Source of the DNA: a virus | Taxonomy: Duplodnaviria > Heunggongvirae > Uroviricota > Caudoviricetes | Strand: one strand, 5' to 3' | Length of the DNA: 64,000 nt | Virus record (IMG/VR): IMGVR_UViG_3300021060_000024 | Location: 11,577-75,576 of that record | Shown here: positions 9,400 through 62,380 of the stretch, one piece after another | How the letters are laid out: each line of letters starts with the position of its first letter | Numbering within the stretch: the first letter of the stretch is position 1 | Position numbers and translations under genes: made by a program | The notes under the pieces: model-generated | Seen by the model: only the letters and a program-made list of their open reading frames with translations | What the model was told of the DNA's origin: nothing | Databases searched by the model: none

Positions 9400-9593
9400 C
9401 CACTGGAGGTCAGGTCGGCGCGGTCCCGGAGTGGTACGAGACGCTCCAGGCCGCACGGTACATGAAGGTGCCCCCGTGGGAGTTGGCCGATCAGCCACTC
9501 TTCTGGCAGCGCGCGGCCCTTGCCGCCATGAAGGCTGAGAACGCCGCTCGCAACCGGAAGGACAAGCCCAGTGCCCACGGTCGCCGAGCTTGA
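9043..9593 (+). CDS. tail assembly chaperone GT product via -1 frameshift at G-run 9369-9376
   Basis: The -1 frame is open from the G-run to TGA at 9591-9593. It encodes ...WYETLQAARYMKVPPWELADQPLFWQRAALAAMKAENAARNRKDK. Confidence 0.45.
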
Positions 9594-21215: not shown

Positions 21216-21392
21216 GTGAGCGAGCTCGACGCCACCTACACCCACCCCACCGGCGAGCACATCGACTGGAGCGCCTGGCCCGAGCCTGACGCCGCCGACG
21301 GTGACGGCTCGGAGTTCGGCGAGCGCCTGGGCGATGGCCCCGGCGCGGTGACCGACACCACCGTGGCCGCCACCCAGCGTCTGGAGTCCTGA
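21216..21392 (+). CDS. small acidic protein (58 aa)
   Basis: GTG start. Its stop overlaps the LysA ATG. Confidence 0.3.
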   Translation: MSELDATYTHPTGEHIDWSAWPEPDAADGDGSEFGERLGDGPGAVTDTTVAATQRLES

Positions 21393-22424: not shown

Positions 22425-22670
22425 ATGAGCACCGACGACCCCAAGACCATCCCGACCCCGGTCAGCCCCAAGGTCTACTCCAGCACCGGCGCGGGTGCGG
22501 CGCTGCTGGCCCTGGGCTTCATCCTGCGCTACTACGGCCTGGACGTGCCCGACGCCGTCATCGGGGCCGTGGCCGTGATCGGCACGTTCGCCGCGGGCTA
22601 CATCACCCCCGACCGCCTGCGCGAGATCGGGGCCGTCTTCCAGCGCGGCCGCGGCGAGCACCGCGCGTGA
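22425..22670 (+). CDS. holin (2 TM, 81 aa)
   Basis: Helices GAGAALLALGFILRYYG and AVIGAVAVIGTFAAGYI. Lies immediately after the endolysin. Confidence 0.6.
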   Translation: MSTDDPKTIPTPVSPKVYSSTGAGAALLALGFILRYYGLDVPDAVIGAVAVIGTFAAGYITPDRLREIGAVFQRGRGEHRA

Positions 22671-22975
22671 TCACCCTGCTGGGTCAGCCTGCCGAGTGGA
22701 TGGATCGCGCAGCCTGCGCGGACCTGCGCACGAACATGTTCCCCTCGGTGCGCGACCCGGCAGGGCAGGCCGCGGCCAAGGCCGTCTGCAGGGGCTGCCC
22801 GGTGGAGGCCGAGTGTCGTGAGCTCGGCCTGGGCCAGGACAAGCAGGGCCGCGCCGAGGAGCGCTGGGGGGTCTGGGGCGGCCAGAACGGACCCCAGCGC
22901 GGGCGCACCGCGGCACGCCGCGCGAAGCACCCCACGAGGCGTTCCAAGATCATGCCCCCCACCCCCGAGGCATAA
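22667..22975 (+). CDS. WhiB-family [4Fe-4S] transcription factor
   Basis: Four Cys in AACADL...AVCRGCPVEAECRELGL, plus GVWGG and a basic tail. GTGA overlap with the holin. Confidence 0.7.
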   Translation: MITLLGQPAEWMDRAACADLRTNMFPSVRDPAGQAAAKAVCRGCPVEAECRELGLGQDKQGRAEERWGVWGGQNGPQRGRTAARRAKHPTRRSKIMPPTPEA

Positions 22976-26719: not shown

Positions 26720-27156
26720 GAGGGGCTCCCGAAGCCCATGGGCACCTCGGCCGCGCGCTCGCCGGGCTCGACCCACCAGGCGCGGTGGCGCTGGGACTCG
26801 TACTTGAGCGTGGCGCCCGAGGAGATCAGCATCAGCGGCACCTCGTCGTTGGCGTGGTCGGTCTCGCTCGGGATGGCCGCGCCGCTGGGGTGGGAGTGCC
26901 ACCAGGCCTGGATGTCGCGCCCGGCCGCGCGCTGGCGCTCCAGCACCGGCTGGAGCTGCTCGATGGTCACCTCGCAGCGCTTGTGAGCCTCGTGCGCCGC
27001 GGCCTCGTTGAACAGCGGCTCGATGATCCAGTGCTGGGGGTCCTCGTCGGGGGCGCCGAACAGGATGGCCACCCCCTCCTCCTCGTCAGCCTCCACCAGC
27101 AGCGCGTTCAGCAGCCTCAGGTGGGTCTTGGTCAGCGTCAGGCCCTCGATCACCAC
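26716..27156 (-). CDS. JAB/MPN (JAMM) metalloprotease domain protein
   Basis: JAMM motif HSHPSGAAIPSETD with an upstream Glu (ADEEEG). Confidence 0.6.
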   Translation of the reverse strand: MVIEGLTLTKTHLRLLNALLVEADEEEGVAILFGAPDEDPQHWIIEPLFNEAAAHEAHKRCEVTIEQLQPVLERQRAAGRDIQAWWHSHPSGAAIPSETDHANDEVPLMLISSGATLKYESQRHRAWWVEPGERAAEVPMGFGSPS

Positions 27157-40962: not shown

Positions 40963-41422
40963 AGCCCAGCTCCTGCAGCTTGGCCGCGAGGCTGTCCGCG
41001 CTCCTGAACGAGGCGTCGGTGAGGTTGAGCGCCTGAGCCATCCGCGTGCGCTCGGCCGCCTTGGGGTCGGTCGGCCACGGCTCGTGGCCCATCAGCACCC
41101 GGTAGAGCATCAGCGCGTTCGCGGCGTGCTGGAGCACCCAGTTCGGGTTCTCCCCCCGGCGCGCGCGGCAGGCCGAGACCCCCTCGCCCACCTCGACCGC
41201 GTCCACCCCGGCCCAGCGCACCTCCTCAGCGTCCTCGACCAGGAAGTCGCGCACGTCGGGGTGCAGGTCGAGGTAGTTGCCCTTCTCGTAGGCCTCGGTG
41301 AGCGCCGCCAGCACTGCGGCGCGCCAGCGCTGGGCCGGAGTGGAGATGTCGTCCGCCCACCAGGCCTTCCTGGCGGCCGCCGTGGCGGCGTCCACGAACT
41401 CATCGGACCAGACCTGACCCAT
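40934..41422 (-). CDS. hypothetical protein (162 aa)
   Basis: Track ORF. Most distal gene of the leftward block. Confidence 0.4.
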   Translation of the reverse strand: MGQVWSDEFVDAATAAARKAWWADDISTPAQRWRAAVLAALTEAYEKGNYLDLHPDVRDFLVEDAEEVRWAGVDAVEVGEGVSACRARRGENPNWVLQHAANALMLYRVLMGHEPWPTDPKAAERTRMAQALNLTDASFRSADSLAAKLQELGFTLPERPAA

Positions 41423-41829
41423 CAGGCGAACACCCCCGAGCGGGTCTGGATGGCGTCCGCCGTCGAGCGCATCAGCATGAGTACCGCCGCCTGGCTGGTC
41501 TTGGGCTCGTCGTTCCAGTTGGGGAAGTGACCCAGGTGGGGCGTGGTCGGGGTGTCCCGGGCCCCCACGGCCAGCGACAGCGCCTCCTCAGCCAGGTAGG
41601 CCGCACCGTGAGCGCGCTCGCCGGTGCCCTTCACGACCTCGATGGCGCCCCAGCCGCAGCAGGGCTGCGCGGAGCGCGGCGTCCCCTGCGAGATCGGGAA
41701 CAGGCCGCCCTTGTGCAGCCCCACGCGCTCCAGGTGGTCGGCGGCCTCGGTGAGCACCCGCGCGACCTCCTCGCGGCTGGCGCCCTCCTGGGCCAGGGTG
41801 TGCTTCCACAGCGACGGCGACATGCTCAC
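41422..41829 (-). CDS. AADH-PCC paralog family member P1
   Basis: LTEAADHLERVGLHKGGLF...PCCGWGAIEVV...FPNWNDEP...MRSTADAI. Confidence 0.45.
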   Translation of the reverse strand: MSMSPSLWKHTLAQEGASREEVARVLTEAADHLERVGLHKGGLFPISQGTPRSAQPCCGWGAIEVVKGTGERAHGAAYLAEEALSLAVGARDTPTTPHLGHFPNWNDEPKTSQAAVLMLMRSTADAIQTRSGVFA

Positions 41830-44172: not shown

Positions 44173-44378
44173 GGGGCACTCGTCCTCTCGATGGTGATCT
44201 TGAACTTGGTCTGGTGCTGGTCGCCCAGCCCGGTCAGCGTCATGTCGACGTTGGCGACGTTGGCCCCACGGGTGCGCATCACGGCGCTGGCGAAGACGCA
44301 CAGCTCGTCGTCGTACTCCCCGTCCGCCGAGGCCACGAAGTGCTCCGCAGCCTCGGCAGCCGTGATGGGGATGGTCAC
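44169..44378 (-). CDS. hypothetical protein (69 aa)
   Basis: GTGA-coupled to the lipoprotein gene. Confidence 0.3.
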   Translation of the reverse strand: MTIPITAAEAAEHFVASADGEYDDELCVFASAVMRTRGANVANVDMTLTGLGDQHQTKFKITIERTSAP

Positions 44379-44755
44379 GCCTCAGTCGGAGAGAGCTCGT
44401 CGGCGGCCGCCCGCAGGGTGGCGACCACCTGCTCCTTGGTGCGCCGGTGGGCGTCGTTGTACCGAGCGAAGCCCAGCTGGTTGAGGTTGTGGCTGACCAC
44501 GAACCTCTCCAGCACCCGCTGAGCCTCGGCATAGGCCTCGGCGGCGGCGTTCTGCTCGGCCTCGGAGCGCTTGTCCGGAGCCGAGGGGCCGACGTAGAGC
44601 TTGGTGACCACGGCCACCGCGCCCAGACCGCAGCAGGGCAGCTTCTCCACCGGAACGTCCAGGTCGTCGTACTCGATCGGGAACATCTGGCCCTGGATCC
44701 AGCCCACCTGCTCGATGTGGTCAGCCGCCTCGCGCAGCACCTGCTCGGTGTTCAC
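44375..44755 (-). CDS. AADH-PCC paralog family member P2
   Basis: VLREAADHIEQVGWIQGQMF...LPCCGLGAVAVV...ARYNDAH...LRAAADEL. Confidence 0.45.
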   Translation of the reverse strand: MNTEQVLREAADHIEQVGWIQGQMFPIEYDDLDVPVEKLPCCGLGAVAVVTKLYVGPSAPDKRSEAEQNAAAEAYAEAQRVLERFVVSHNLNQLGFARYNDAHRRTKEQVVATLRAAADELSPTEA

Positions 44756-45159
44756 GATCCGAGCCTGTTCGCGGCCGCGCGCATCGCGGCGGCGACGTCG
44801 GCCGCCGTGGTGTCTGCGCTGTCGGACCACCGCGGCACGGTGAAGTTGCCCCCCGACTTCTCGTCCACCACCGCGGCCAGGGCATCAACGGCCGCGGTGT
44901 CGAGAGCGGCCGTCGCGTCAGCCTCCTGGCCACCCTCGAACGTGACGGTGGCGTAGATGCTCATCCAGCCGCTCGGGTTGTGCGGGTCCTCGATGAAGTA
45001 GCCGGAGCTGACCGCGATGGCCCCCAGTGCGCAGCAGGAACGTGCGGCCAGGGGCTTGCTGCCGCCCCTCTCGAAGAAGCTCCCCTTGTACAGACCCACG
45101 GTCTCGATGTGGTCGGCGGCCTCGGTGAGAACCTGTGCCGGCGTCTTGGTCTCGCTCAT
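44752..45159 (-). CDS. AADH-PCC paralog family member P3
   Basis: VLTEAADHIETVGLYKGSFF...SCCALGAIAVS...VPRWSDSAD...MRAAANRL. Confidence 0.45.
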   Translation of the reverse strand: MSETKTPAQVLTEAADHIETVGLYKGSFFERGGSKPLAARSCCALGAIAVSSGYFIEDPHNPSGWMSIYATVTFEGGQEADATAALDTAAVDALAAVVDEKSGGNFTVPRWSDSADTTAADVAAAMRAAANRLGS

Positions 45160-45503
45160 GCTGCAGCCTCCTCGGCCTTGAGGCGGTCGGCGGTGGCGCG
45201 CATCCGCCGCAGCACCACCTCCTGGGTGATCTGGGGGTCGTCGTTCCAGGCCACGATGCGGTCGTGGGCGTAGCGCTCGCCGTAGCCCAGGTCGCGCGCA
45301 ACCGCGGCGAGGGCGTCACGCGAGGCGGACTCGCCCACGAAGAGGCTGACCCGGGGCGTCACGACGCGGATGGCGCCGACGACGCAGCAGGGGCGCTGGC
45401 TGTCGGGAGCCTCCACCCCCGAGCGGTAGTAGTGCCCGTCCTGGTTCAGCCCCACGGTCTCGATGTGGTCGGCCGCGGCGCGCAGCACCTGCTCGGCGTT
45501 CAC
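45156..45503 (-). CDS. AADH-PCC paralog family member P4
   Basis: VLRAAADHIETVGLNQDGHYY...PCCVVGAIRVV...VAWNDDPQ...MRATADRL. Confidence 0.45.
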   Translation of the reverse strand: MNAEQVLRAAADHIETVGLNQDGHYYRSGVEAPDSQRPCCVVGAIRVVTPRVSLFVGESASRDALAAVARDLGYGERYAHDRIVAWNDDPQITQEVVLRRMRATADRLKAEEAAA

Positions 45504-51374: not shown

Positions 51375-51433
51375 AGTGATCTCCTCAGTGGTGGTGGTGG
51401 TGGGTAGAGCGTAGGCGGCGCGGGGTGGAGCGT

Positions 51434-51571
51434 CTAGTCGCGCAGGTGGTCGGGGTCGGGCTCGGTGGGCTCAGGGGCGTCGGGGCACCAGCCGTCGTTG
51501 TGGACGTAGTCGGGGCAGCCGCAGAGCAGGCAGTTGCCGTGACCGTCGTCGGTGAAGACGTAGTCGCTCAC
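51434..51571 (-). CDS. tiny Cys-rich peptide (45 aa)
   Basis: GTG in a GTGA overlap with the upstream tiny gene. GHGNCLLCGCPDYVHNDGWC. Confidence 0.25.
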   Translation of the reverse strand: MSDYVFTDDGHGNCLLCGCPDYVHNDGWCPDAPEPTEPDPDHLRD

Positions 51572-51702
51572 CAGCGGTACTCCTTCGGCAGGCTTCGGCG
51601 CAGCACGTGGCGCCGACGTCGGTAGGTGATCTCGCACGCGGCAGCCACCAGGACGGTTCCGCCGATCGTGACCATGGCCAGGGCGGCCAGGAACAGGCTC
51701 AC
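51568..51702 (-). CDS. tiny membrane peptide (44 aa)
   Basis: Hand-translated: VSLFLAALAMVTIGGTVLVAAACEITYRRRRHVLRRSLPKEYRW. Confidence 0.25.
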   Translation of the reverse strand: MSLFLAALAMVTIGGTVLVAAACEITYRRRRHVLRRSLPKEYRW

Positions 51703-51718
51703 AGTGATCAGCTCCAGG

Positions 51719-52258
51719 TCAGTAGCGGTCGGTGGCGGTGGAGATGGGCAGGGCCAGCCCCTGGGCCGTGGCCCACTGGCGGGCGGTGTACGAGCGCTCG
51801 GGGGTGCCGTCGGCGGCGTAGGTCACGACGTAGTGGAAGGCGACGCCGGGGAAGCGAGCGTCGTAGCGCACCTCGGGGCACGAGCGGTTGCCGTCCACGC
51901 GGCAGTCGAAGCGCGGATCGTCCTCCTCGACGACGGGCGCCGGCGCCGCGGGCAGCACCTCGGGGGCCACGACCTGCAGGCGCACGGCCGGCTGCACGAC
52001 GTCGGTGCGCAGGGCGGCGGTGGCCGCCTGCTGGGGGGTGGCCAGGGCCAGCACGGTCAGCAGGCCGGCGAGCAGGATCGGCAGCGTGGACAGCAGCGCG
52101 CGAGCGTGGCGCGGGGTGGGGCGACGGGTGGCGCGGTGACGAGCCGAGACGAGCCGCCCTGCGGATCGGCTCGTCGCGCGGTGACGAGCCGGGCGGGTGC
52201 GGCGGGTCAGGACGCGCAACGTGGCGGTGAGGGTGGGGGTGGCGGCGTGAGCAGACAT
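51719..52258 (-). CDS. secreted hypothetical protein (179 aa)
   Basis: Signal peptide LLSTLPILLAGLLTVLALATPQQAATAA. Driven by promoter cassette E1. Confidence 0.45.
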   Translation of the reverse strand: MSAHAATPTLTATLRVLTRRTRPARHRATSRSAGRLVSARHRATRRPTPRHARALLSTLPILLAGLLTVLALATPQQAATAALRTDVVQPAVRLQVVAPEVLPAAPAPVVEEDDPRFDCRVDGNRSCPEVRYDARFPGVAFHYVVTYAADGTPERSYTARQWATAQGLALPISTATDRY

Positions 52259-52288
52259 CAGGGGCCTCCGAGCGGTGGTGGTGGGCTT

Positions 52289-52355
52289 GTGGGTAGAACG
52301 TTACGGGGTAGAACGTGGCGGTGCAAGCATCGGCCCTGTGACCTACGTCACAGGG
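52289..52355 (-). promoter_or_regulatory. promoter/operator cassette E1 (variant)
   Basis: GTGGGTAGAACGTTACGGGGTAGAACGT plus perfect palindrome CCCTGTGACCTACGTCACAGGG. On the minus strand: TTGCAC, 17 bp, TAACGT. Confidence 0.5.
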
Positions 52356-52374
52356 CCGATAGCTGCGCGTCTGA

Positions 52375-52806
52375 TCAGATCGGCTGGCCCGCCAGAACGC
52401 GCGCCAACTCCTCCTCACTGACGACCCGGTCCTGGTCGAGCACCGGCTGGAAGTTGCCGCGGCGCGTGCGGACGACGTGATCCCAGCGGTTGCCGCGCAT
52501 GTTCGACAGGAGGATCTCGTGGTCTCCGGGGAGCGCCTTCACGTCGGCGGCGTCGAGCATCTCGCCGATGTAGATGTAGCGCCGACCAGCAGGGGCGCCG
52601 TCCGGCAGCCACTTCTCGTTGCCCTCGTCGTCCGTCCAGCGGACCCAGGTGCGCGCCTGGAGGCGCACCCCGAACCAGCGGCCGTCGTCGGGCATCTTCG
52701 GCAGGACGGCCTGTGGCGTGCCGCGTTCGACCTGCACCGAGGCGCCCTCCTCGCTCATGAACGACCCCGGGTAGAGGGGCGTGGCGTGGATGCGGTTCTC
52801 CTTCAT
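52375..52806 (-). CDS. hypothetical protein (143 aa)
   Basis: AAGGAGAG RBS. Track ORF. Confidence 0.45.
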   Translation of the reverse strand: MKENRIHATPLYPGSFMSEEGASVQVERGTPQAVLPKMPDDGRWFGVRLQARTWVRWTDDEGNEKWLPDGAPAGRRYIYIGEMLDAADVKALPGDHEILLSNMRGNRWDHVVRTRRGNFQPVLDQDRVVSEEELARVLAGQPI

Positions 52807-52843
52807 GGCCTTGCTCTCCTTCTGTCAGTAGTCCTGGGGATGG

Positions 52844-53059
52844 TCAGGTCAGGTACTGCAGGTCGATGCCGAGCATGTCGGCGAACGTGTCCACAGCGGC
52901 GGTGTTGCCGACGTCGATGCCCTCCTGCAGGCGGTCGACGGTGGCGCGGGTGGTGGCGTCCTCCAGGGCGAACCAGGGCGCGACGGCGTCGCGGACCTCG
53001 GTGGAGTCGACGGTGGCCGAGCCGGAGCCGTCGCGGGCGGTGACGCTGATCAGTGCCAT
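52844..53059 (-). CDS. hypothetical protein (71 aa)
   Basis: Internal ATG (MALISVTARDG...) of the track ORF. Its start abuts the Lsr2-like gene stop. Confidence 0.35.
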   Translation of the reverse strand: MALISVTARDGSGSATVDSTEVRDAVAPWFALEDATTRATVDRLQEGIDVGNTAAVDTFADMLGIDLQYLT

Positions 53060-53063
53060 GGGG

Positions 53064-53519
53064 TTAGTCCTCCAGGGTTGCGTTGGGGTTGCGCCGGCGC
53101 AGCCCGCCGAGGCGGTACTGACCGGCGCGGTGGGCGTCGAAGGTGTCCAGGGTGTCCCACTGGGTGCGGAACGGGCGCTCGGGGTGGGCCTGGTTGTAGG
53201 CCTTGACCAGCGCCAGGGGCAGCGTGCCACGGTCGGGCACATCCACCGGGGAGACCCGCCGCGCCCAGGCGCGCACCTCGGCGGCGCTGGCCCGGTCGGG
53301 CTTGACCTCGACGGGCTGGCGCGAGGTCTGGGTGTGGCCGGCCCAGCGGCCGGGGCCACCCTTGAGTCGTGGGACGGGTGTGGCGTAGGGCCGGCCGGGG
53401 TGGGCCCGGTTGTAGGCCTCGACGTAGACGTCGGCCAGGCGGCCGCGCGAGGTGACGGCGTCGGGCTCGATGTCGCGCAGCCAGGCGCGGACCTCAGCCA
53501 TGGTGGCGTACTCGCTCAT
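53064..53519 (-). CDS. protein with two tandem Lsr2-like C-terminal DNA-binding domains
   Basis: AEVRAWLRDIEPDAVTSRGRLADVYVEAYNRAHPGRP and AEVRAWARRVSPVDVPDRGTLPLALVKAYNQAHPERP, compared with Lsr2 [30 protein letters not shown]. Confidence 0.55.
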   Translation of the reverse strand: MSEYATMAEVRAWLRDIEPDAVTSRGRLADVYVEAYNRAHPGRPYATPVPRLKGGPGRWAGHTQTSRQPVEVKPDRASAAEVRAWARRVSPVDVPDRGTLPLALVKAYNQAHPERPFRTQWDTLDTFDAHRAGQYRLGGLRRRNPNATLED

Positions 53520-53521
53520 GG

Positions 53522-53944
53522 TCAGTAGCCGAACTGCAGCACGCGAATGGTCTCGGACTCCTCGGTGGTGGACATGACCGAGGCGATGAGCGCGATGGCC
53601 CAGGCGAACCGGCGGTAGGGGTCGGTGCGCTGGTCGGCCTTGAGCGCGTCCAGCAGTGCGCGGGCGGGGACGGCGGTGAGCCGGGCGCCGTACTTGTCCT
53701 CGGTCAGTACCTGCTGCGAGGCGCCCTCGGGGTCGAACATGGTCATGTCGCTGGGCACCTCGGTGCTGGTCTGGTAGAAGCGCTCGCCGGCGGCGCGGGC
53801 CTGGGCCAGCAGTGCACCGGTGGCGGTCTCGCGGCCGGCGTTGGCCAGGTCGATGGTGGCCAGTGTGCGGCAGTCGACCAGCGGGCCGTCCTGCATGTAC
53901 TCGGGGTACTCGCGGACGATGAACAGACGGGTGTCGTAGGACAT
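53522..53944 (-). CDS. hypothetical protein (140 aa)
   Basis: Track ORF. First gene downstream of cassette E2. Confidence 0.4.
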   Translation of the reverse strand: MSYDTRLFIVREYPEYMQDGPLVDCRTLATIDLANAGRETATGALLAQARAAGERFYQTSTEVPSDMTMFDPEGASQQVLTEDKYGARLTAVPARALLDALKADQRTDPYRRFAWAIALIASVMSTTEESETIRVLQFGY

Positions 53945-53987
53945 CGTGATCAGCTCCAGGTGGTGGGTGGTGGTGCTTGATGGGTAG

Positions 53988-54044
53988 AACGTTACGGGGT
54001 GGTGCGGGGCGGGTCAAGCCCCAGCTCTGTGACCTGCGTCACAC
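53988..54044 (-). promoter_or_regulatory. promoter/operator cassette E2
   Basis: Minus strand: GTGTGACGCAGGTCACAG ... TTGACC - 17 bp - TAACGT - TCTACCCATCA ... ACCACCACC ... GGAG - ATG. Confidence 0.55.
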
Positions 54045-54080
54045 CCGCCGGGGGCCGTGCTGGCCCCCGGCGGGCGGCGC

Positions 54081-55310
54081 TCACATGATGGCGTGGAGGA
54101 TGGCGGCCGCCATGAGCGGCGGTACGGCGTTGCCCACCTGCTGCTGCTGGGACGTCTTGCTGCCCTGCCAGGGGTAGTCGCGGTCGAAGGACTGCAGCAC
54201 GCCAGCCTCGGCCTGGGTCACGCGGACCGAGCCGGGGGTCTTCTGGCGCGGGGGGTCGCCAGCCTTGCGGTAGCCGGGCGCCGCGATGACGTCGCCCGCG
54301 AACGTGCCGACCACGGTCGGGGAGGTGTCGCCCTCGACGGCAGCCACGGGCTGCCAGCGCGTGCCGGTGGCGAGCGTGTCGCGCGGGTCGATGTCGCCCG
54401 ACTCCTGCCAGGTCACCGCGTTGCCGCGACCACCGAAATGGATCGTAGGGGCAGGAGTGGACTCGTGACGCACGGCCGTGTTGGCCTGGTTGCCGTTGTA
54501 GAACCACTGCCCGCGCGTGACCTTGCTGGTGACGGCAGCAGCGGGCTGCTCGGCGGTGCGCACGCCACGGGCGGCGGGGTCGCCGCCGGTGCCGTAGTTG
54601 GACCGGATGGCCTCGCCGTGGTGGGCGTCGAGCGCGTCGGCCATGGAGACCCACGAGGGCACGCCCTCGTCGCGGCGCTGGGGGTCGCGGGGGTAGTAGG
54701 CGCTGTGGGTGGGCTCAGGCAGGGACACCTCGCGCACCCGGGAGGCCACCAGCACGGCGCGGCGGCGAGTCTGCGGCACGCCGTACTGCTCGGACTTGAG
54801 CACGCCCGTGGCCACGCTGTAGCCCCACTCGCGCAGGTGCTCGGCGTAGGCCTCCCACACGGGCAGGACGGCGGGCACCTGCTCCAGCGCGACCCACTGG
54901 GGGCGCTGGTCGCGGATGACGGTCAGCGGGTGCAGGACCAGGACCGACCGGTCGTCGAGCGTGGCATCGGCCACGATCTCCACGGCCTGCTCGGGGCTGT
55001 AGCCGCAGCCGACCAGGTCGACAGCGTCGAGCAGGTGGCCCAGCGCAGCGCGACCGGCGCCCTTGCCAGCGGCCGTGAACGTCTGGCACGGCGGACTAGA
55101 GATGTAACCGACGTGGGCAATCAGATTGACCAGGCGCACGTCCCCGCGGATGCGCTGGTGACCAGCGGCCACGGCCGTGGCGCACGCGTTGGCGTCCCAC
55201 TCCACGCCCATGACACGGGCGGGGTCGACGCCGAGCAGGCGCAGCCCCTCGTCCCAGCCGCCGGGGCCGGCGAAGTCGTCGCGGATGTCGATGATCGTGG
55301 GGGTGGACAT
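54081..55310 (-). CDS. DNA (cytosine-5)-methyltransferase (orphan)
   Basis: Motif I FAGPGGW, motif IV SPPCQTFTAAGK, motif VI-like LEQVPAV, motif VIII QTRRRAVLVAS. Start MSTPTIIDI (the longer N-terminus in the track is promoter read-through). Confidence 0.8.
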   Translation of the reverse strand: MSTPTIIDIRDDFAGPGGWDEGLRLLGVDPARVMGVEWDANACATAVAAGHQRIRGDVRLVNLIAHVGYISSPPCQTFTAAGKGAGRAALGHLLDAVDLVGCGYSPEQAVEIVADATLDDRSVLVLHPLTVIRDQRPQWVALEQVPAVLPVWEAYAEHLREWGYSVATGVLKSEQYGVPQTRRRAVLVASRVREVSLPEPTHSAYYPRDPQRRDEGVPSWVSMADALDAHHGEAIRSNYGTGGDPAARGVRTAEQPAAAVTSKVTRGQWFYNGNQANTAVRHESTPAPTIHFGGRGNAVTWQESGDIDPRDTLATGTRWQPVAAVEGDTSPTVVGTFAGDVIAAPGYRKAGDPPRQKTPGSVRVTQAEAGVLQSFDRDYPWQGSKTSQQQQVGNAVPPLMAAAILHAIM

Positions 55311-55341
55311 GGTCGGTGCCTCCGTGGTGGGTGGTGCCGGG

Positions 55342-55409
55342 CTGATGGGTAGAACGTTACGGGGTGGCGGGGGGCCGGTCAACCCCTGGCAGCGTGACGT
55401 GCGTCACAC
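55342..55409 (-). promoter_or_regulatory. promoter/operator cassette E3
   Basis: GTGTGACGCACGTCAC palindrome, TTGACC, 17 bp, TAACGT. Confidence 0.55.
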
Positions 55410-55438
55410 CGGATGAGCCGGCCCCCCCAGCTGATGAT

Positions 55439-55942
55439 CTAGAAGCACGCCGAGCAGGTGCAGTGGCGGCGCTTGCCGGACTGGCAGCGGGGGGAGGGGT
55501 CGTGCGGGGGCAGCACCCCGTCGCGGCAGGACTGGCAGGGCTCGGACTCGCGCAGCAGCGCAGCCAGGCGCTCGACGTGGTTGCGCTGGTCGTCGGCGCG
55601 GGAGCGCAGCGTGGTGGCCAGGGCCACGGAGGATGCGTCGCGCATCTTGCGCAGGATGGTGCCGAGGTAGGCGCGCTCGCCCGCCAGGAGATCGGTGAGC
55701 CCGTCGCGGTCCAGCACCAGCAGCGTGGTGTCGTCGCTACCCACGTGCAGCACGACCGGCACACCGTCCAGCGTGGTGCCGTGGTGGGTGCCGACGGGGA
55801 GCATGCGGCCGGGGGTGGCGCGGGCAGTGCTGGCCAGCCCGTCGTGCAGCGGCATGCCGAACGTGTCGGCCGGGTCGGTGATCGTGACGTGCTGGTCGGA
55901 CAGGACGTGACCCAGGCGGGTGATGGTCTCGGACATGATCAT
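55439..55942 (-). CDS. hypothetical protein with Cys-rich C-terminus (167 aa)
   Basis: Starts MIMSE (ATGATCATG). C-terminal CQSCRDG...RCQSGKRRHCTCSAC. Confidence 0.4.
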   Translation of the reverse strand: MIMSETITRLGHVLSDQHVTITDPADTFGMPLHDGLASTARATPGRMLPVGTHHGTTLDGVPVVLHVGSDDTTLLVLDRDGLTDLLAGERAYLGTILRKMRDASSVALATTLRSRADDQRNHVERLAALLRESEPCQSCRDGVLPPHDPSPRCQSGKRRHCTCSACF

Positions 55943-56025
55943 GGCCTCCGTGGTGGTGGGTGGGTGGTGGGCGTGCCTGGCCCCGGTGCCGGTCCGGGTG
56001 CGCCCCACGGCGCCAGGCCAGTAGG

Positions 56026-56232
56026 TCAGTGCTGCTCGCGCCAACGGTGCAGGGAGAGGGCGGACTGAGCCGACCCGATGTCACCACCCACCTCGCCGAC
56101 GACGTGAGCCAGGCAGACCGGGCACAGCGTGTGCCAGGTGTTGTCACCAGCGTGGCTGATGCTGCCGACGCGAGCGACGATGATGGGGGTAGCGGGGGTG
56201 GCGGTGGGGGTGAGGGTCTTGGACATGATCAT
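56026..56232 (-). CDS. small zinc-ribbon protein (68 aa)
   Basis: Also starts MIMS. CPVCLAHV. Driven by cassette E4. Confidence 0.4.
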   Translation of the reverse strand: MIMSKTLTPTATPATPIIVARVGSISHAGDNTWHTLCPVCLAHVVGEVGGDIGSAQSALSLHRWREQH

Positions 56233-56258
56233 GGCCTCCGTGGTGGTGGGTGGTGGTG

Positions 56259-56327
56259 CCTGATGGGTAGAACGTTACGGGGTGGTGCGGGGCGGGTCAA
56301 CTCCTGGCGGCGTGACGTGCATCACAC
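56259..56327 (-). promoter_or_regulatory. promoter/operator cassette E4
   Basis: GTGTGATGCACGTCAC palindrome, TTGACC, 17 bp, TAACGT. Confidence 0.55.
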
Positions 56328-56397
56328 CCGGATGGGCCGGCCCCAGAGCTCTGGACCTTGGTCCCCGGGCCCGCGCGCGCGGGCCCGGGGTGGTGCC

Positions 56398-57078
56398 TCA
56401 CGCGGACAGCGCGTGCCCGTCGAACGCACCGGGGGCCCAGTAGTTGCGGCGCCACGCGATCCACGTCACGGCCTGCACCTCGCTGGCGGCCACGGGGCGA
56501 CCCATCTCACGCGAGAGGATGCGCGCGGCCCGTCGGTAGCCATCGGCCGCCCACGCGTAGCGGGTGCCGGTGATGCCCGGTCGCACAGGCAGGCTCTCGT
56601 CGCCGGAGATGGCGTCGTCGCGGTGGCGCGTGTTGGTCACGATGTCCCACGCGTGGCGGTCGATGCACACGGCGTCGAGGTCGGTGCCGCCCGAGACGAT
56701 GCACGCCCAGAAGTTGGTGATCTTGGGGGAGTTGAGCGTAGTCGGGATGTCGGCACCCGAGAGGATGGCGGCCGCCTTGCGCAGCCCGGTCCCGAGGTAG
56801 CCCGCCGTGGTGGTGATGCCCTCGGCGTGGTCGGCCAGGATGCGCCCGGCGAGGTTGACGTTCGCGCCCCAGGAGTTGAGCGGGCTGGTGGCCGCGATGA
56901 CACCGGCGGCCTGGGCCAGCGTGACGCCGTAGCGGGTGGCGAGCGCGTCCGCGATGCGCTGCGCGTCGGCATACCAGCCGATGCCGGTCACGATGCCGTC
57001 GGCGATGGCCAGCCGGTACAGGGTGGTGATGTTGCGGGTGGCGAGCGCGTCGGTGATGGGGGCGGTGAAGCGAGCCAT
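56398..57078 (-). CDS. hypothetical protein (226 aa)
   Basis: Track ORF. Driven by cassette E5. Confidence 0.45.
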   Translation of the reverse strand: MARFTAPITDALATRNITTLYRLAIADGIVTGIGWYADAQRIADALATRYGVTLAQAAGVIAATSPLNSWGANVNLAGRILADHAEGITTTAGYLGTGLRKAAAILSGADIPTTLNSPKITNFWACIVSGGTDLDAVCIDRHAWDIVTNTRHRDDAISGDESLPVRPGITGTRYAWAADGYRRAARILSREMGRPVAASEVQAVTWIAWRRNYWAPGAFDGHALSA

Positions 57079-57112
57079 GATCGTGAACCTCCGTGGTGGT
57101 GGGTGGGTCCTG

Positions 57113-57180
57113 CTGATGGGTAGAACGTTACGGGGTGGGGGCTGGGCTGTCCAGCCCCCACGGTGTGACCTGCGTCACAC
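57113..57180 (-). promoter_or_regulatory. promoter/operator cassette E5
   Basis: GTGTGACCTGCGTCACAC (on the plus strand) plus second palindrome GGGGGCTGGGCTGTCCAGCCCCC. TGGACA, 17 bp, TAACGT. Confidence 0.55.
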
Positions 57181-57549
57181 GATGCGGCCCGAGAGCGTGG
57201 CCCGGTAGGCCTGGCGCGCACGCTCCACGCGCACCTCGCGCTCACGGCTGCTCGGGCTGGTGTGGTCGCGCCACTCGATCGGGCGCCACGTGGTAGCCAC
57301 CCCGTCGATGGACGTGTCGGACAGGTGGCGCCCGGTCAGCGCGTAGTACTCCGTGGAGCGCACGGCCTCGCGTCGGTAGCCTGCCGCCTGCTGCGCGTAG
57401 TGGTCGGCCTGGCTGGCCATACCCATGATCCGGAACATGCGGGACTGCGTGATCGCGAACCGTGCAGCGTTGAGCGCGTAGTCGCGGCCGTGGGTGTTCA
57501 CGTCGTACGTGCGTGCGTCGCTGATCTTGGTGGCGAGGGTGGTGGACAT
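57175..57549 (-). CDS. hypothetical protein (124 aa)
   Basis: Track ORF. Driven by cassette E6. Confidence 0.4.
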   Translation of the reverse strand: MSTTLATKISDARTYDVNTHGRDYALNAARFAITQSRMFRIMGMASQADHYAQQAAGYRREAVRSTEYYALTGRHLSDTSIDGVATTWRPIEWRDHTSPSSREREVRVERARQAYRATLSGRIV

Positions 57550-57582
57550 GATCTTGACCTCCGTGGTGGTGGGCGGGTCGTG

Positions 57583-57650
57583 CTGATGGGTAGAACGTTA
57601 CGGGGTGGGGGCTGGGCTGTCCAGCCCCCACGGTGTGACCTGCGTCACAC
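57583..57650 (-). promoter_or_regulatory. promoter/operator cassette E6 (near-identical to E5)
   Basis: Same composite as E5. Confidence 0.55.
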
Positions 57651-57992
57651 CAGCCCGAGGACGAGGTAGGCCTCGGTGCCGTCGGTGCCGGGGTCACCCA
57701 CGGTAACGAAGTAGCGCGGGCCCTGCTCACCCTCGCAGAACGCCAGGGCCACCATGGTGCCCTCACTGTTGGGGGCGTAGTCGCGGAAGACGATCTCGCC
57801 CGTGGCGGGGTCGGTGGTCACGTAGGCGGTGCAGTCATCGGCGACCCGGATGCTCATCTCGTCGGCCGTGGTGGAGAACGTCACTCGGGCCTGTGCGGGG
57901 ACCGTGGTGGAGGCACTGGCGGCCGAGGCGCCGAAGATGGCCAGGGTGAGGAACGCGAGGGTGAGGGCGAGGGTGCGAGCGATGCGGGCCAT
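57645..57992 (-). CDS. secreted hypothetical protein (115 aa)
   Basis: Signal peptide MARIARTLALTLAFLTLAIFGASAASA. Driven by cassette E7. Confidence 0.45.
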   Translation of the reverse strand: MARIARTLALTLAFLTLAIFGASAASASTTVPAQARVTFSTTADEMSIRVADDCTAYVTTDPATGEIVFRDYAPNSEGTMVALAFCEGEQGPRYFVTVGDPGTDGTEAYLVLGLV

Positions 57993-58027
57993 GATCGTGA
58001 TCTCCTGTTCTCGGCCGCCCTGTGCGG

Positions 58028-58095
58028 CTGATGGGTAGAACGTTACGGGGGCCGAGGGTCGCTGTCCACCCCACACCGTGTGACCTGCATCACAG
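58028..58095 (-). promoter_or_regulatory. promoter/operator cassette E7
   Basis: CTGTGATGCAGGTCACAC palindrome, TGGACA, 17 bp, TAACGT. Confidence 0.5.
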
Positions 58096-58329
58096 AGCTC
58101 TGGGTGACCAAGCATCACTGTGGGTAGTGGCCGGCTCAGCCCCATACCTACCGTGCGCACACGCGCGTACCCGCGACCTACCACACCCATAGGTGTGTGT
58201 GCAATGCGTGGGTAGTGCATGGCCATGCATACCCACAACGGCCCTGTACGCCACGCTGCGCCCCTTTACCCCCGTAGTGGCACTACCACCCACGCATGCC
58301 CTGTTCGTGGCGCAGCGTGCATCGGTGCT

Positions 58330-58540
58330 GGTCACAGGCATGATCATTGTGTATGTAAGAACATTGTTTACATGTATGTCATGACATGTGATGCATACAT
58401 TGTGTTGCATGTGTATGCAATCACTACATGTAGTGATCACACTACATGTTGTTACATACGCATGTGATGTATGTATGTTGTGTGCGATGTAACACATAGT
58501 CATTGATCACTACACATAGTCATGCTCACTGTGTGTGTGC
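58330..58540. other. AT-rich palindrome/iteron island (candidate cos/pac or ori) between divergent blocks
   Basis: GC falls to about 35-40% over ~200 bp. Perfect 14-bp palindrome CACTACATGTAGTG. Repeated CATGTGATG(C/T)AT, ACATGT and TGATCAC(T)ACA. Flanked by direct repeats GTGGCCGGCT...ACCTAC(C/G)GTG at about 58127 and 58555. Confidence 0.45.
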
Positions 58541-58805
58541 CTATGCCTACCCACAGTGGCCGGCTACCTACGGTGATGGGTCATGCACGGAGAGCTCCGA
58601 CTACGGTGCGTAACGATCAAGAGCTCAGGGTGATGGGGGTGTGCATGGCCCTCCGCGTTTGTCAGGACATACCCCCACCCCTGGGGGGGTGACCCCTTGA
58701 TCAGCTTCGACGGCTGACCTGTGGAGAGGGGAAAAAACGGGCGGTCAAGTTCAAGAGCATCTGGCGTCACACCAGTAACACGGGCCACGCGGCTACGCTG
58801 CGGGC

Positions 58806-59162
58806 ATGCAGCTGGACGTGGAGGCCGCGGCCCGCATCGCCTACGGAGGGGTGCGCGCCCTGGCCATCGAGGCTGGTCAGGCGCATGTTCCGCTGTCCTG
58901 GGACAAGGCGCCGGAGTGGGCCCGCAACGAGATGCGCACCGAGATCGTCGAGGCTCTGGACGAGCCCGACGCCGAGGCGCGCTGGCGTCGCCTGCGTCGC
59001 GAGCGTCAGACCTCCGGCTGGCGCTACGGGCCCAAGCTCGACGGCCGCGAGAAGACCGACCCCCGCCTGGCTGAGGAGTACGACCGGCTCGACGACTTCT
59101 GGCGCCAGCGCGACGCCGTGGTCGGGGCCGCGGTCGCTGCGCTGCTGCCCTGGCTGCGCTGA
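58806..59162 (+). CDS. hypothetical protein (118 aa)
   Basis: First rightward gene after the AT-rich island. Confidence 0.4.
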   Translation: MQLDVEAAARIAYGGVRALAIEAGQAHVPLSWDKAPEWARNEMRTEIVEALDEPDAEARWRRLRRERQTSGWRYGPKLDGREKTDPRLAEEYDRLDDFWRQRDAVVGAAVAALLPWLR

Positions 59163-59332
59163 TGGCCGCGACCGGCTACAAGGTGGAGGTCACCTGCCCG
59201 CTCGGCTGCAAGATCAAGCTCACCGAGGTGCTGTCGTTCGCCGTGGTCACCAACGGTGCAGTACGGGTCGAGCTCGACGTCGATCGCTACGAGCTCGCCA
59301 TGCACGCCCACATGGTCGGGATGCACTCGTAG
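59162..59332 (+). CDS. hypothetical small protein (56 aa)
   Basis: Stop/ATG overlap. CPLGC motif. Confidence 0.3.
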   Translation: MAATGYKVEVTCPLGCKIKLTEVLSFAVVTNGAVRVELDVDRYELAMHAHMVGMHS

Positions 59333-59356: not shown

Positions 59357-60049
59357 ATGCCGTCAGGTGGAGCACGCATGCGGTCGGGGCCGGCCAAGGA
59401 CCCGAACGCGCTGCGTCGTGTACGCGACGCCAAGGAGTGGGTGAAGCTCACGCGCGACGCGCGCGTCGGCATCCCCGCGCCCGAGTGGCCGCTGGACCCC
59501 CCGATCGCCGTGCAGGCGCACATCGACTTCCTGACCGAGCAGGTCGAGGAGCTGCGCGACAAGTGGGCCGCGGCCGAGGATGGCCGCACAGCCAACGCGC
59601 TCGCGAAGAAGCTCGACCGGGCCTCGGAGAACCTCAAGGTCATGGAGGCTGTGGAGGCCGCGCGTGAAGAGCGCGAGGGTGCGCTGTGGGTGAAGCTCTG
59701 GCAGTACCCGCAGGCCGCGGTCTGGGAGGCCGACTTCCAGCACCTCAACGTCGCGCTGTACGTGCGCATGTTCCTGGAGTCCAGCCAGCCCGGAGCGAAG
59801 GGCGCTGACCGCACGGTGCTGCGCCAGCTCGGCGACAGCCTGCTGCTGACCGAGCCCAGCCTGCACGCGCACAAGTACGTGATCGACGCCGACATCGTCG
59901 GCGGGGCTGACCCCGACCTCGTCGCGGACAAGGCCGGGCTGAACCCGGCCGACGAGGGCGAGGCCCCCAAGAAGAAGCGTGGCCGCACGTCGCGCTTCCT
60001 GACCGTGGCCCCCGAGCCGCCCACCGAGGACGAGGACGACGCATCGTGA
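59357..60049 (+). CDS. putative terminase small subunit (position-based)
   Basis: AGGAGG 8 nt upstream of ATG. Basic and acidic termini. Lies upstream of the large terminase, but two small genes intervene. Confidence 0.3.
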   Translation: MPSGGARMRSGPAKDPNALRRVRDAKEWVKLTRDARVGIPAPEWPLDPPIAVQAHIDFLTEQVEELRDKWAAAEDGRTANALAKKLDRASENLKVMEAVEAAREEREGALWVKLWQYPQAAVWEADFQHLNVALYVRMFLESSQPGAKGADRTVLRQLGDSLLLTEPSLHAHKYVIDADIVGGADPDLVADKAGLNPADEGEAPKKKRGRTSRFLTVAPEPPTEDEDDAS

Positions 60050-60318: not shown

Positions 60319-60632
60319 AGGTCCAGAAGATCGACATTACGCTGGAGGTGCCCAAGGCTGACGTCGTCGCCATGGGCCGTGACGCCGCGGCGCGCTACTG
60401 CATCGAGAAGCTGCGCCACGGGGCCGAGGAGAAGGCCCACGAGGTCGGCGGGCACGTCATCACCGACCGCGCGCCGGAGTTCCTCATCGAGGAGGGCTCG
60501 CGCCTGGACATCGGCGGGGACTGGCTGCTCATGGCCGCGCGCTTCGAGATCGAGGTGCCCGACTCCTTCGACGCCCACGCCCAGCCGGGCTCGGTCGTCA
60601 CCTCGCGCAACCGCATCCTGCTGCCGGGCTGA
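60315..60632 (+). CDS. hypothetical protein (105 aa), alternative terminase small subunit candidate
   Basis: GTGA overlap. Its stop overlaps the terminase large subunit ATG. Confidence 0.35.
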   Translation: MKVQKIDITLEVPKADVVAMGRDAAARYCIEKLRHGAEEKAHEVGGHVITDRAPEFLIEEGSRLDIGGDWLLMAARFEIEVPDSFDAHAQPGSVVTSRNRILLPG

Positions 60633-62380
60633 TGGCCGCGCCGTCCAAGACGGTCGCGCTGCCGTTCGCCGCCGAGGTCGGCAGCCCCAAGGACGTCACC
60701 TGGCCCGTGCTGGAGGTGGCGATCGACTGGGTCGAGCGCCACTGCGTCGTCCCTGACCGCTTCGAGGCGGGCCAGCCCTACCGCCTGGCCTCCTACCAGC
60801 TCTGGTTCTACGCCAACCACTACCGGGTGCGCGAGGACGCCGAGCTGACCGAAGTGCCGGACAACCGCACCGACTCGTTCGGCAACGTCGTCAGCCACGG
60901 CATGAAGCTCGTGCCGACCGGCGCGCCCGCCTTCTACTACCGCCGCAGCCAGATCATCATGCCCCAGAAGGCGGGCAAGGGGCCGCTGACCGCGAGCCAG
61001 ATCTGCCTGGAGGCTGTGGGCCCGGCCATGTTCGCTGGCTGGAGCGACGGCACCGAGGTCTACCGCTGCAGCGACCACTTCTGCGACTGCGGGTGGGAGT
61101 ACGAGTACGCCGAGGGCGAGGCCATGGGCGCGCCCTGGCCGACCGCGCTGATCCAGGTCACCGCCTTCTCCGAGGAGCAGGCGGGCAACGTCTGGGACGC
61201 GCTCAAGCCGATGATCGAGCTCGGCCCGCTGGCGTCGGTGATCAACATCGGCGAGGAGTTCGCGCGCCTGCCCGGCGGCGGCCGCATCGACAAGGTGACG
61301 TCGAGCGCGAAGTCCCGCCTGGGTCAGCGCGTGACCTTCGTGCCCCAGGACGAGCTCGGGCTGTGGGTGAAGGAGAACAAGATGATCTCCGTCGCCGACA
61401 CCCAGCGCCGCGGCGCCGCGGGCATGCAGGGCAGGGTCGTGGAGACCACCAACTCCTTCGACCCGGCCGAGGAGTCCGTGGCCCAGGGCACGGCCATGGC
61501 CGCCATGAAGTCCAAGGACCTGTTCCGCATCCATCCCCAGGGCGACCCGAGCCTGCGCTTCGCCGACAAGCGCCAGCGCCGGCTGATCCTCAAGCACGTC
61601 TACGCGGGCTGCCACTGGATCAACCTGGACTCCATCGAGGCCGAGATGGCCGAGATCTTGGAGCGCGACCCCGCCCAGGCCGAGCGCTTCTTCGGCAACC
61701 GCGTGGTGGCTGGCCTGGGTGCCTGGGTCGAGTCCGAGGAGTGGGCCAAGTGGTCCCGGCCCGACATCGTCGTGCCCCAGGGCGCGGAGGTCTGCGGCGG
61801 CTTCGACGGCTCCGAGTCCGACGATTGGACCGCGATTCGCCTGCAGACCAAGGAGGGGCACCGCTTCACCCCGCTGTACGGGCCCGACCGGCGCCCCACG
61901 TACTGGGACCCGCGCGACTGGGGCGGCTCGATCCCGCGCGGAGAGGTCTCGGCCGCGGTGGACGAGATCAGCCGCGAGTACCGCCTGCGCCGCCTCTACG
62001 CCGACCCCCGCGACTGGGAGACCGAGATCGGCGACTGGGCGCTCAAGCTCGGCGAGGAGGTGGTCTTCGAGTGGGCCACCTACCGCATCATCGACATGCA
62101 CAAGGCGCTGGTGCAGGCCCGCACCGACCTCATCCAGGGCCGCTCGACCCATGACGGCGACGAGACCGTGGCCATCCACGTCGGCAACGCGCGCAAGATC
62201 GCCAAGCCGATGGAGCGCTACATCATCGGCAAGCCGGACCAGCACCGCAAGATCGACATCTGCATGGCCGACGTGCTCGCGCACCGCGCCGCCAGCGACC
62301 TGCGCGCCGAGGGCTGGATCGTGCAGGCGGCCAAGCAGAAGGCGCTCACGCGCGTGCGTGGGCTGGCGCGCTCTCGCTGA
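60632..62380 (+). CDS. terminase large subunit
   Basis: 582 aa. N-terminal ATPase-like region and C-terminal acidic nuclease-like region. Followed by the portal gene. Confidence 0.75.
   Translation: MAAPSKTVALPFAAEVGSPKDVTWPVLEVAIDWVERHCVVPDRFEAGQPYRLASYQLWFYANHYRVREDAELTEVPDNRTDSFGNVVSHGMKLVPTGAPAFYYRRSQIIMPQKAGKGPLTASQICLEAVGPAMFAGWSDGTEVYRCSDHFCDCGWEYEYAEGEAMGAPWPTALIQVTAFSEEQAGNVWDALKPMIELGPLASVINIGEEFARLPGGGRIDKVTSSAKSRLGQRVTFVPQDELGLWVKENKMISVADTQRRGAAGMQGRVVETTNSFDPAEESVAQGTAMAAMKSKDLFRIHPQGDPSLRFADKRQRRLILKHVYAGCHWINLDSIEAEMAEILERDPAQAERFFGNRVVAGLGAWVESEEWAKWSRPDIVVPQGAEVCGGFDGSESDDWTAIRLQTKEGHRFTPLYGPDRRPTYWDPRDWGGSIPRGEVSAAVDEISREYRLRRLYADPRDWETEIGDWALKLGEEVVFEWATYRIIDMHKALVQARTDLIQGRSTHDGDETVAIHVGNARKIAKPMERYIIGKPDQHRKIDICMADVLAHRAASDLRAEGWIVQAAKQKALTRVRGLARSR

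Follow-up and report, generated by a model that had tools for sequence, protein, structure and literature searches.

An AT-rich alternating tract lies beside a predicted 3'-overhang cos site in an uncultured actinophage

Why does a phage genome of 71% guanine plus cytosine (GC) hold a short, sharply AT-rich island just upstream of its terminase genes? The question is raised by a 64,000-nt stretch of a Caudoviricetes genome (IMG/VR record IMGVR_UViG_3300021060_000024, positions 11,577 to 75,576), referred to here as the window, whose source is an actinophage of about 75 kb and 71% GC. The island (58330..58545; 216 nt, 39% GC, 79% purine/pyrimidine alternation) lies in an 813-bp non-coding gap (57993-58805), with leftward genes to the left of the gap (first start codon at 57992) and a rightward operon to its right. 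A preliminary description had presented it as an island of palindromes and iterons at the place expected for a cos or pac site, and possibly as an origin. Comparison with relatives points to another part of the same gap: a cos site of the 3'-overhang type very probably lies at 58676-58757, with its cut predicted at 58727/58728 (GACCTGTGGAGA|GGGGAAAAAACGGGCGGTCAAGTTCAAGAG) and the island 190-400 bp to the left of that cut, and the island itself is almost certainly not where the DNA is cut. The overall explanation that we favour, though tentatively, is that the island is a deformable accessory element, apart from cos proper, on the right-end side of this site.

The compositional anomaly is real. 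GC falls to 0.35-0.41 in 100-nt windows at 58350-58549, against 0.62-0.77 on both sides, in agreement with the drop from about 70% to 35-40% first described, and this is the deepest GC dip of the 64-kb window: 300-nt windows reach 0.49, with 0.59 adjoining, and the lowest value elsewhere is 0.63. Alternation of purines and pyrimidines in the island (0.79) compares with a window mean of 0.53 (standard deviation 0.039) and stands at z=8.6 against shuffles, and the window-wide maximum falls inside the island. TG, CA, GT, AC and AT steps are over-represented, with AA, TT, GG and CC steps reduced to 0.17-0.38 of expectation (AA/TT 0.27-0.38), and A/T runs of at least 5 are absent. The window is identical, over the stretches compared, to the 75,580-bp metagenome contig k141_661892 (ENA ERZ27250785); an independent assembly, Logan contig L190 (run SRR7162643), also covers the entire gap at 100% identity, and the island is therefore not an artefact of one assembly pipeline. 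As originally stated, it parts the leftward block from the rightward TerS/TerL/portal operon.

The repeats within the island are a different matter. The palindrome CACTACATGTAGTG, first reported at 14 bp, is present but extends to the perfect 18-mer ATCACTACATGTAGTGAT (58420..58437), with two degenerate copies at 58438 and 58506. The short units recur as described, with CATGTGATG(C/T)AT at 58385 and 58461, ACACATAGTCAT at 58492 and 58512, and four of the window's five ACATGT sites inside the island. Given the composition, however, the palindrome and the short repeats are barely above chance (p ~0.03 and ~0.07, respectively): of 2000 dinucleotide-preserving shuffles of the island, 2.8% contained a palindrome of 18 bp or more, 17% one of 14 bp or more and 7% a direct repeat of 12 nt or more. 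Tandem Repeats Finder detected no tandem array in the gap, where the repeat families have only two or three degenerate copies. Since alternating sequence itself generates palindromes and short repeats, at about the level seen here, the description of the island as a set of iterons is unsupported.

Repeats flanking the island, on the other hand, exceed chance in the same shuffles (direct 11-mer, p=0.015; inverted 12-mer, p=0.005; both jointly, 0/2000). The direct repeats noted earlier are real (AGTGGCCGGCT at 58126/58555 and TACCTAC(C/G)GTG at 58145/58565), although the left copy carries a 9-nt insert and not a single variable base, and they are accompanied by an exact 12-nt inverted pair, CACTGTGGGTAG/CTACCCACAGTG, at 58116 and 58547. 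These belong to two blocks of 40-50 bp on the plus strand, TCACTGTGGGTAGTGGCCGGCT...TACCTACCGTG (58115..58155) and TCACTGTGTGT...CTACCCACAGTGGCCGGCTACCTACGGTG (58526..58575), which bracket a GC-rich palindromic segment and the island. A 29-bp near-perfect palindrome read from the sequence, GTGGGTAGTGCATGGCCATGCATACCCAC (58208..58236), holds two GTGGGTA/TACCCAC motifs, of which the gap contains four of the eight copies in the window.

Where, then, is the genome cut? We compared more than 150 contigs and phage genomes with related large terminases, drawing on 160 TerL-aligned loci taken from IMG/VR and from JGI metagenomes and on Logan, JGI and ENA contigs added through exact-protein look-ups. 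Among 152 distinct locus starts, 34 begin 19-21 nt before a GGTTCA-type motif, against a background of 8% of any 120-nt window, and another 20 have such a motif in their first 60 nt. About 28 loci read through the site and share a common junction, GA(A/C)CGCCGGGGA|GGGC-N16-GGTTCA(A/G)A, which the window fits at 58716-58757. The deposited ends of phage Kromp are ...GACCGCGGGGGA on the right and GGGCTCTCGG... on the left, the left end of Isolde has GGTTCAAAAA at position 21, and the 3' overhang of Thermobifida phage P318, CGCCGGGGGCC, has been mapped experimentally (PMC6893835). The TerL of the window phage is about 50% identical to those of SEA-PHAGES actinophages, in which TerL begins 565-1335 bp from base 1 of the record.

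Closer relatives (TerL 59-80%) bring this position to a single base. Contigs in this family start with GGGGATTTTTTGG (L009), GGGGACTTTTTGG (L192), GGGTAATTTTCC (L021) and GGGCGAAAAACC (L104); that of the closest relative, L006 (TerL 80%), begins GGGCTGTGTTTGGGCGGTCAAG at the base homologous to 58728, and the sequences of L009, L192, L020 and L021 have their first base at the corresponding position. Three others, L191, L105 and L007, read through the cut with a conserved dyad to its left, and the core of the read-through alignment comprises GGGGGGGTGACCCC (58683-58696), GACCTG.GG.GA (58716-58727) and GGG...GGTC...GGTTCA (58728-58753). The junctions and contig ends of the relatives thus predict a cut that follows 58727 and a left genome end that begins at 58728. 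Both terminase genes lie downstream of this predicted cut, TerS (59378) by 650 bp and TerL by 1.9 kb.

The predicted cos site would thus consist of several parts. Its GC-rich dyad is CACCCCTGGGGGGGTGACCCC (58676..58696); the dyad core GGGGGGGTGACCCC aligns with the versions in L191, L105 and L007, some 30-50 nt left of the cut, and dyad-like sequences also stand left of the cut in L079 and L096. Next comes the predicted 3' cohesive-overhang zone GACCTGTGGAGA (58716..58727, plus strand), with the top strand predicted to be cut after 58727; judging by the ends of the Kromp record and the mapped overhang of P318, the overhang is likely the last 9-11 nt of this zone. To the right of the cut, the predicted left genome end (58728..58757, plus strand; GGGGAAAAAAC...AGTTCAAGAG) has an A-run at +5..+10 and a GGTTCA-type motif at +21. 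This run, AAAAAA at 58732-58737, is the sole A/T run of at least 6 in the 64-kb window. Homopolymers of 4-6 nt are likewise found a few bases inside the left genome end in L009, L011, L020, L021, L024, L104, L105 (7129), L169 and L192, as A-runs in some relatives and T-runs in others, and this flip of polarity suggests that the A-tract is kept as structure and not as sequence. The end of contig L005 (~59138) was considered as a physical end and set aside: L190, from the same run, ends a few bases off yet spans the whole gap at 100%.

Cleavage at the island or its palindrome would suit the expected intergenic gap and the two-fold symmetry of the palindrome, but the relatives contradict it, and we regard it as highly improbable. 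The family-wide junction and contig ends map 190 bp further right, the palindrome is statistically marginal, and no relative contig covering the region ends in an equivalent AT-rich palindrome; L191, which ends 359 bp to the left of its own cut, within a tandem ATGTGGTGCATGTGC repeat, reads through that cut. The expectation of a cos or pac site in this gap therefore stands, with cos predicted at the far right edge of the interval first described (58676-58757), but the island, the palindrome and the short repeats all lie outside that site. The preliminary description was right about the anomaly and about the neighbourhood of cos; it put the function on the wrong feature and over-read the repeats.

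What might the island do instead? We read it as a low-complexity alternating tract, neither iteron array nor cut site, which would lie 190-400 bp inside the right end of the virion DNA. Its AT-richness is not kept in L007 (TerL 63%), L105 (59%), L103 (60%) or L191 (71%), which have 50-79% GC at the equivalent place. Alternation, on the other hand, reaches its locus-wide maximum 150-600 bp left of cos in all four of these read-through relatives (z ~2.6-3.4), and CATG, TGCA and CATGTG are enriched 4- to 60-fold at those maxima. Because the relatives keep the alternation and not the AT-richness, the island is best read, at low confidence, as an AT-rich version of a deformable segment. In some of the more distant cos-HNH relatives, an AT block with A-tracts and rich in GATC stands 50-160 bp to the left of the cut; it falls to 28-31% GC per 100 nt in L079 and L082 and is weaker in L094, L156 and L163. 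These comparisons suggest a recurrence of unusual DNA, in varying form, on the right-end side of cos.

What can be shown is where the tract lies, how it is composed and that unusual DNA recurs there; any part that it plays in packaging or DNA entry is something we infer by analogy. CA/TG and TA steps are the most flexible DNA steps, and the island may be a form, exceptionally rich in AT, of a deformable and readily unstacked segment of an extended cos or terminus region. As such it could help terminase or host architectural proteins to bend or distort the DNA as the packaging motor reaches the downstream cos. Alternatively, its place of action could be the last-packaged, first-ejected end, by analogy with the right end of lambda; the island would then sit between the entering end and the first leftward early promoter. 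A structural or accessory role for the island, taken on its own, we consider possible but doubtful. Still less probable is the broader proposition that an alternating segment 150-600 bp inside the right end is a conserved structural component of cos across this family of 75-kb actinophages, acting through its deformability; such a segment might slow or re-register the translocating terminase before the downstream cut, or act on the last-packaged end, and the form of it in the window phage would be an extreme one, rich in AT.

Several points weigh against the predicted cos site or against the island as an accessory element beside it. The source contig and the Logan contig of this phage read straight through the predicted site, as is expected if circular or concatemeric DNA was sequenced, and the ends are placed from relatives. 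Gordonia phage Nyceirae (L016, KX557282) is annotated as circularly permuted, yet its base 1 is at the conserved left-end position (GGGCGCTGAATGGCGCGGAG|GGTTCAAGA, 1-49); the end-type annotation or the choice of start base in that record deserves a check. None of the relatives was seen to carry the same AT-rich island, and the conservation of alternation is that of four loci and could merely reflect the difference between non-coding and coding DNA. Within the island, dinucleotide steps have no 10-11 bp helical periodicity, and the longest in-phase alternating runs are AT-rich and only 12-14 nt long for an overall alternation of 0.79, so that classical Z-DNA is doubtful there because the runs are short (<=14 nt). 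The longest perfect alternating run of the whole window, the GC-rich 19-nt CGTGCGCACACGCGCGTAC (58152..58170), lies outside the island.

If the island were instead the unwinding element of a replication origin, the GTGGGTAG/CTACCCAC motifs and the two 40-50 bp repeat blocks would be the initiator sites. The island (216 bp, 39% GC) has the least stable duplex of the window and is the sole plausible unwinding element there, the direct and inverted repeats at its flanks are significant, and four of the eight GTGGGTA/TACCCAC copies fall in the gap. The phage also has a gene for a helicase of the PrimPol-D5 type (27150-29537), whose C-terminal domain is Pox_D5, and the corresponding non-coding stretch that separates cos from the first leftward gene holds, in L007 and in L105, four tandem 12-16 bp repeats (CTCGCCCACCCA at 6766-6830 in L007; GGAGGCACCCCT.. 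at 6675-6735 in L105), which could be terminase-binding or iteron-like sites. The gap of the window phage has no equivalent array, however, and lacks a set of at least three regularly spaced direct repeats of 17-22 bp; the internal repeats are near chance, and CTACCCA is part of every early promoter cassette and thus not specific to the gap. The helicase gene, the sole recognisable replication gene, is ~29 kb from the island, and the AT-richness is not kept in relatives. The suggestion that the island could be an origin thus retains its AT-richness and flanking repeats but gained no further positive support, and we judge it rather improbable. GC skew was discarded as an indicator here, as it follows gene orientation and says nothing on replication.

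Control of transcription is somewhat easier to entertain, though still unlikely: the island could contain a late promoter from which the rightward TerS-TerL-structural operon is read through cos, or serve for nucleation by an AT-binding protein of the nucleoid, be it host Lsr2 or the phage-encoded protein with tandem Lsr2 domains, that times early and late expression. The 78 nt from the cut to the first rightward open reading frame hold no recognisable promoter or ribosome-binding site, and no Shine-Dalgarno sequence is visible before that gene (58806), whereas relatives have strong promoters right of cos. A sharp GC drop, moreover, is a hallmark of CgpS/Lsr2 targets (PMC7002338), and the island shows one. 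The phage encodes a tandem Lsr2-domain protein (53064-53519, minus strand; Pfam PF23359, 32.1 bits against a cut-off of 26.9), no homologue of which was found in the fetched parts of relatives without an AT island, and which is a candidate binder of the island. However, proteins of the Lsr2 type favour DNA in which A/T runs are long and seldom broken by G/C (PMC7002338), and the island has no A/T run of at least 5; relatives keep its alternation and not its AT content. The phage protein, of 151 amino acids, consists of two domains (AEVRAW...SRGRL and AEVRAW...DRGTL) without the Lsr2 oligomerisation domain, an architecture unusual for a phage Lsr2-like protein, and its gene sits in the early leftward operon.

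Promoter scans lend the transcriptional explanation little. Promoters of the sigma-70 (HrdB) type pair a TTGACA-like -35 hexamer with a TAnnnT -10 hexamer 16-19 nt away. A strict scan for such promoters and for terminators gave no match in the island, and a relaxed scan of 58000-58830 returned one weak candidate in the island (TTGTTA-19-TATGTT at 58449) besides recovering, as a positive control, the sole consensus-like promoter of that interval. The latter is the cassette of the first leftward gene (58040..58094, minus strand), with TGTGA-N6-TCACA at 58079-58094, a -35 element TGGACA at 58063-58068, a 17-nt spacer and a -10 element TAACGT at 58040-58045. It belongs to a cassette of about 90 nt that recurs before at least seven consecutive leftward genes (starts 52258, 53944, 55310, 56226, 57078, 57549 and 57992; 51375-58095, minus strand), with a partial copy upstream of 51374, in the order GTGTGAC-GCAG-GTCACAC (CRP/GlxR-type), ~10-14 nt, TTGACC/TGGACA, 17 nt, TAACGT, TCTACCCATCAG, a CACCACC-rich leader, GGAGG and ATG. 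As the leftward gene owns such a cassette, the island is not needed as its promoter. The cassette palindrome overlaps the stop codon of the preceding gene and is also present before the first gene, where no gene lies upstream; it may bind a transcription factor or form a hairpin between genes. Copies of GTGGGTAG in the gap were rejected as extra promoters, having no accompanying -10 or -35 element, and an exact search of IMG/VR with the cassette core CGTAACGTTCTACCCA returned 11 chance matches in low-GC contigs.

Nor did RNA features emerge. No tRNA was detected in the island, where Rfam gave no family and only sub-threshold matches to miRNA hairpins, and RNA and DNA folding of three sub-regions, the island and both flanks, was not significant (z -0.05 to -1.8; island -1.4). 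Relatives have more to the right of cos, including near-consensus TTGACA-N17-TAnnnT promoters in L011 (98-128, 288-320 and 692-725), L008 (265-300) and the starts of L020 and L021, an apparent tRNA-like sequence at ~445-520 in L011, and repeated TGTGGACAA sequences resembling DnaA boxes at 40-125 in L192. No such promoters, tRNA-like or DnaA-box-like sequences occur in the 78 nt between cos and the first open reading frame of the window phage.

The island might also have no function, as a neutral low-complexity spacer that is prone to slippage or recombination and tolerated in the leader between cos and the first early promoter. Its repeats are those predicted from composition, the short units look like local duplications, and the island is lineage-specific. 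Compatible with polymorphism, too, is the behaviour of a strain variant from a sister sample: contig L188 matches the window at 98-100% identity over 57225-58340, except for one 200-nt patch, and stops exactly at the left edge of the AT island. Against neutrality stand the alternation maximum at the same relative position in 4/4 read-through relatives, the non-random flanking repeats, and the consideration that a tract of this length and composition (216 bp, 39% GC) would have to be either selected for or very young in a genome of 71% GC; we hold this explanation, like transcriptional control, to be unlikely. The divergent patch of L188 is itself of note, as this hypervariable segment (57775-57975, 56-78% identity) spans the signal peptide and the N-terminal portion of the mature chain of the secreted 115-amino-acid protein encoded by the first leftward gene. 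That gene (57645..57992, minus strand) forms the left border of the gap, as supported by its translation and by the gene call on the identical contig.

On the other side of the gap, the rightward operon encodes, in order, a 118-amino-acid RyR-like protein, a 56-amino-acid protein, TerS, a MazG-like protein, a 105-amino-acid protein and TerL, and a portal gene follows from ~62.5 kb. The first of these genes (58806..59162, plus strand) has weak similarity to the RyR domain, and its homologue in L191 matches Pfam RyR. TerS (59378..60049, plus strand; 223 amino acids) shares 31-33% identity with the annotated TerS of Kromp and Isolde (E ~1e-11 to 1e-12) and, with 130 tblastn matches, keeps its place directly before TerL throughout the fetched relatives; TerL itself (60632..62380, plus strand; 582 amino acids) matches phrog_19179 at 5.8e-132. 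Other genes typical of tailed phages are present in the window, among them a tape-measure-sized open reading frame (9571-15306), an endolysin (21392-22414), WhiB (22667-22975), a YqaJ exonuclease, a C5 methylase and a DUF7178 protein. Three DUF6197 paralogues lie within 4 kb on the minus strand (41422-41829, 44375-44830 and 45156-45503). Among ~50 proteins scanned against Pfam, PHROGs and NCBIfam there was no integrase, repressor or sigma factor by which the palindrome might be explained. When mapped onto k141_661892, the window coordinates would cross the contig ends at ~26372, as in a circular or rotated assembly of ~75.4 kb, and the 11.4 kb outside the window comprise head genes and part of the tail genes.

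Direct searches added little to the comparison made through the terminase. At the DNA level, 57900-59200 matched none of 50,697 phage records, and the exact 18-bp palindrome had one unrelated match in IMG/VR. Single-protein TerL scans yielded one truncated locus in IMG/VR and none in the genome collection. As a route to the right-end side of close relatives, homologues of the gap-adjoining gene gave one strain variant only, which stops at the island edge, and with DUF7178 homologues as the anchor the closest were on contigs too short to reach the gap.

With the pattern GGGGA|GGG...GGTTCA, the genome ends of this uncultured 75-kb actinophage and its relatives become predictable to the base, which helps to orient and complete metagenomic phage genomes and to design cos-based packaging vectors. 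If the alternating tract is functional, it would represent a shape-encoded packaging or terminus element, a type with few documented cases besides lambda and SPP1; if it has no function, it is an ordinary compositional oddity of a non-coding leader.

Among known systems, Lsr2/CgpS targets resemble the island in combining a narrow GC drop in a high-GC actinobacterial context with, here, a phage Lsr2-domain protein, but differ from it in their long uninterrupted A/T stretches, and no oligomerisation domain is present in the phage protein. Origins of the iteron type (lambda ori, P4 ori/crr) are alike in having an AT-rich segment with short motifs repeated in both orientations on its flanks, together with a D5-type helicase-primase; the island differs in having no regular 17-22-bp array, in motifs that are common to promoter cassettes, in the distance of the initiator gene and in an AT-richness that relatives do not keep. 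At P_left of mycobacteriophage L5, leftward early transcription starts in a non-coding region by the right cos end, as it would here. Unlike in L5, the early promoter of the window phage is a separate cassette 240 bp left of the island, and no repressor or integrase is among the proteins scanned.

Shaped DNA beside a packaging site has precedents in SPP1 and lambda. The pac site of SPP1 (pacL-pacC-pacR), as summarised in PMC4856287, is alike in its non-identical flanking binding regions and in deformable DNA around the cleavage region, and according to the same summary SPP1 TerS recognises DNA structure and not sequence; SPP1 differs in packaging by headful, without cohesive ends, and its bent DNA consists of A-tracts and not of alternating sequence. 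The lambda cos site (cosQ-cosN-I2-cosB) is a composite of ~200 bp in which DNA shape beside the nick site matters, through intrinsic bends and enhancement by IHF (PMC4856287). The DNA around cosN is bent at I1 and I2, A/T tracts lie just inside the left end (I2), and the right-side cosQ is required for termination of packaging; these bends together with cosQ count in both initiation and termination (PMC4856287). On the other hand, lambda has 5' overhangs and an unrelated terminase, and its cosQ is short and close to cosN, in contrast to a 216-bp alternating tract 190-400 bp off.

The nearest counterparts are the 3'-overhang cos sites of actinophages, as in Kromp (Streptomyces), Isolde (Arthrobacter) and P318 (Thermobifida). 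The window phage differs from these in an overhang zone of CTGTGGAGA and not CGCCGGGGA, in an A6 run instead of GC-rich sequence at +5..+10 and in two extra small genes between cos and TerS, and its ends are predicted ones. It agrees with them in the position of the site directly upstream of TerS-TerL, in the G-rich ...GGGGA|GGG... junction, in the GGTTCA(A/G)A motif 21 nt inside the left end, and in terminase subunits that are 47-51% (TerL) and 31-33% (TerS) identical to theirs. Judged by these likenesses, the cos site would be a further member of a well-known type, and the alternating tract at most a variant, with a putative role, of the shaped DNA that stands beside packaging sites.

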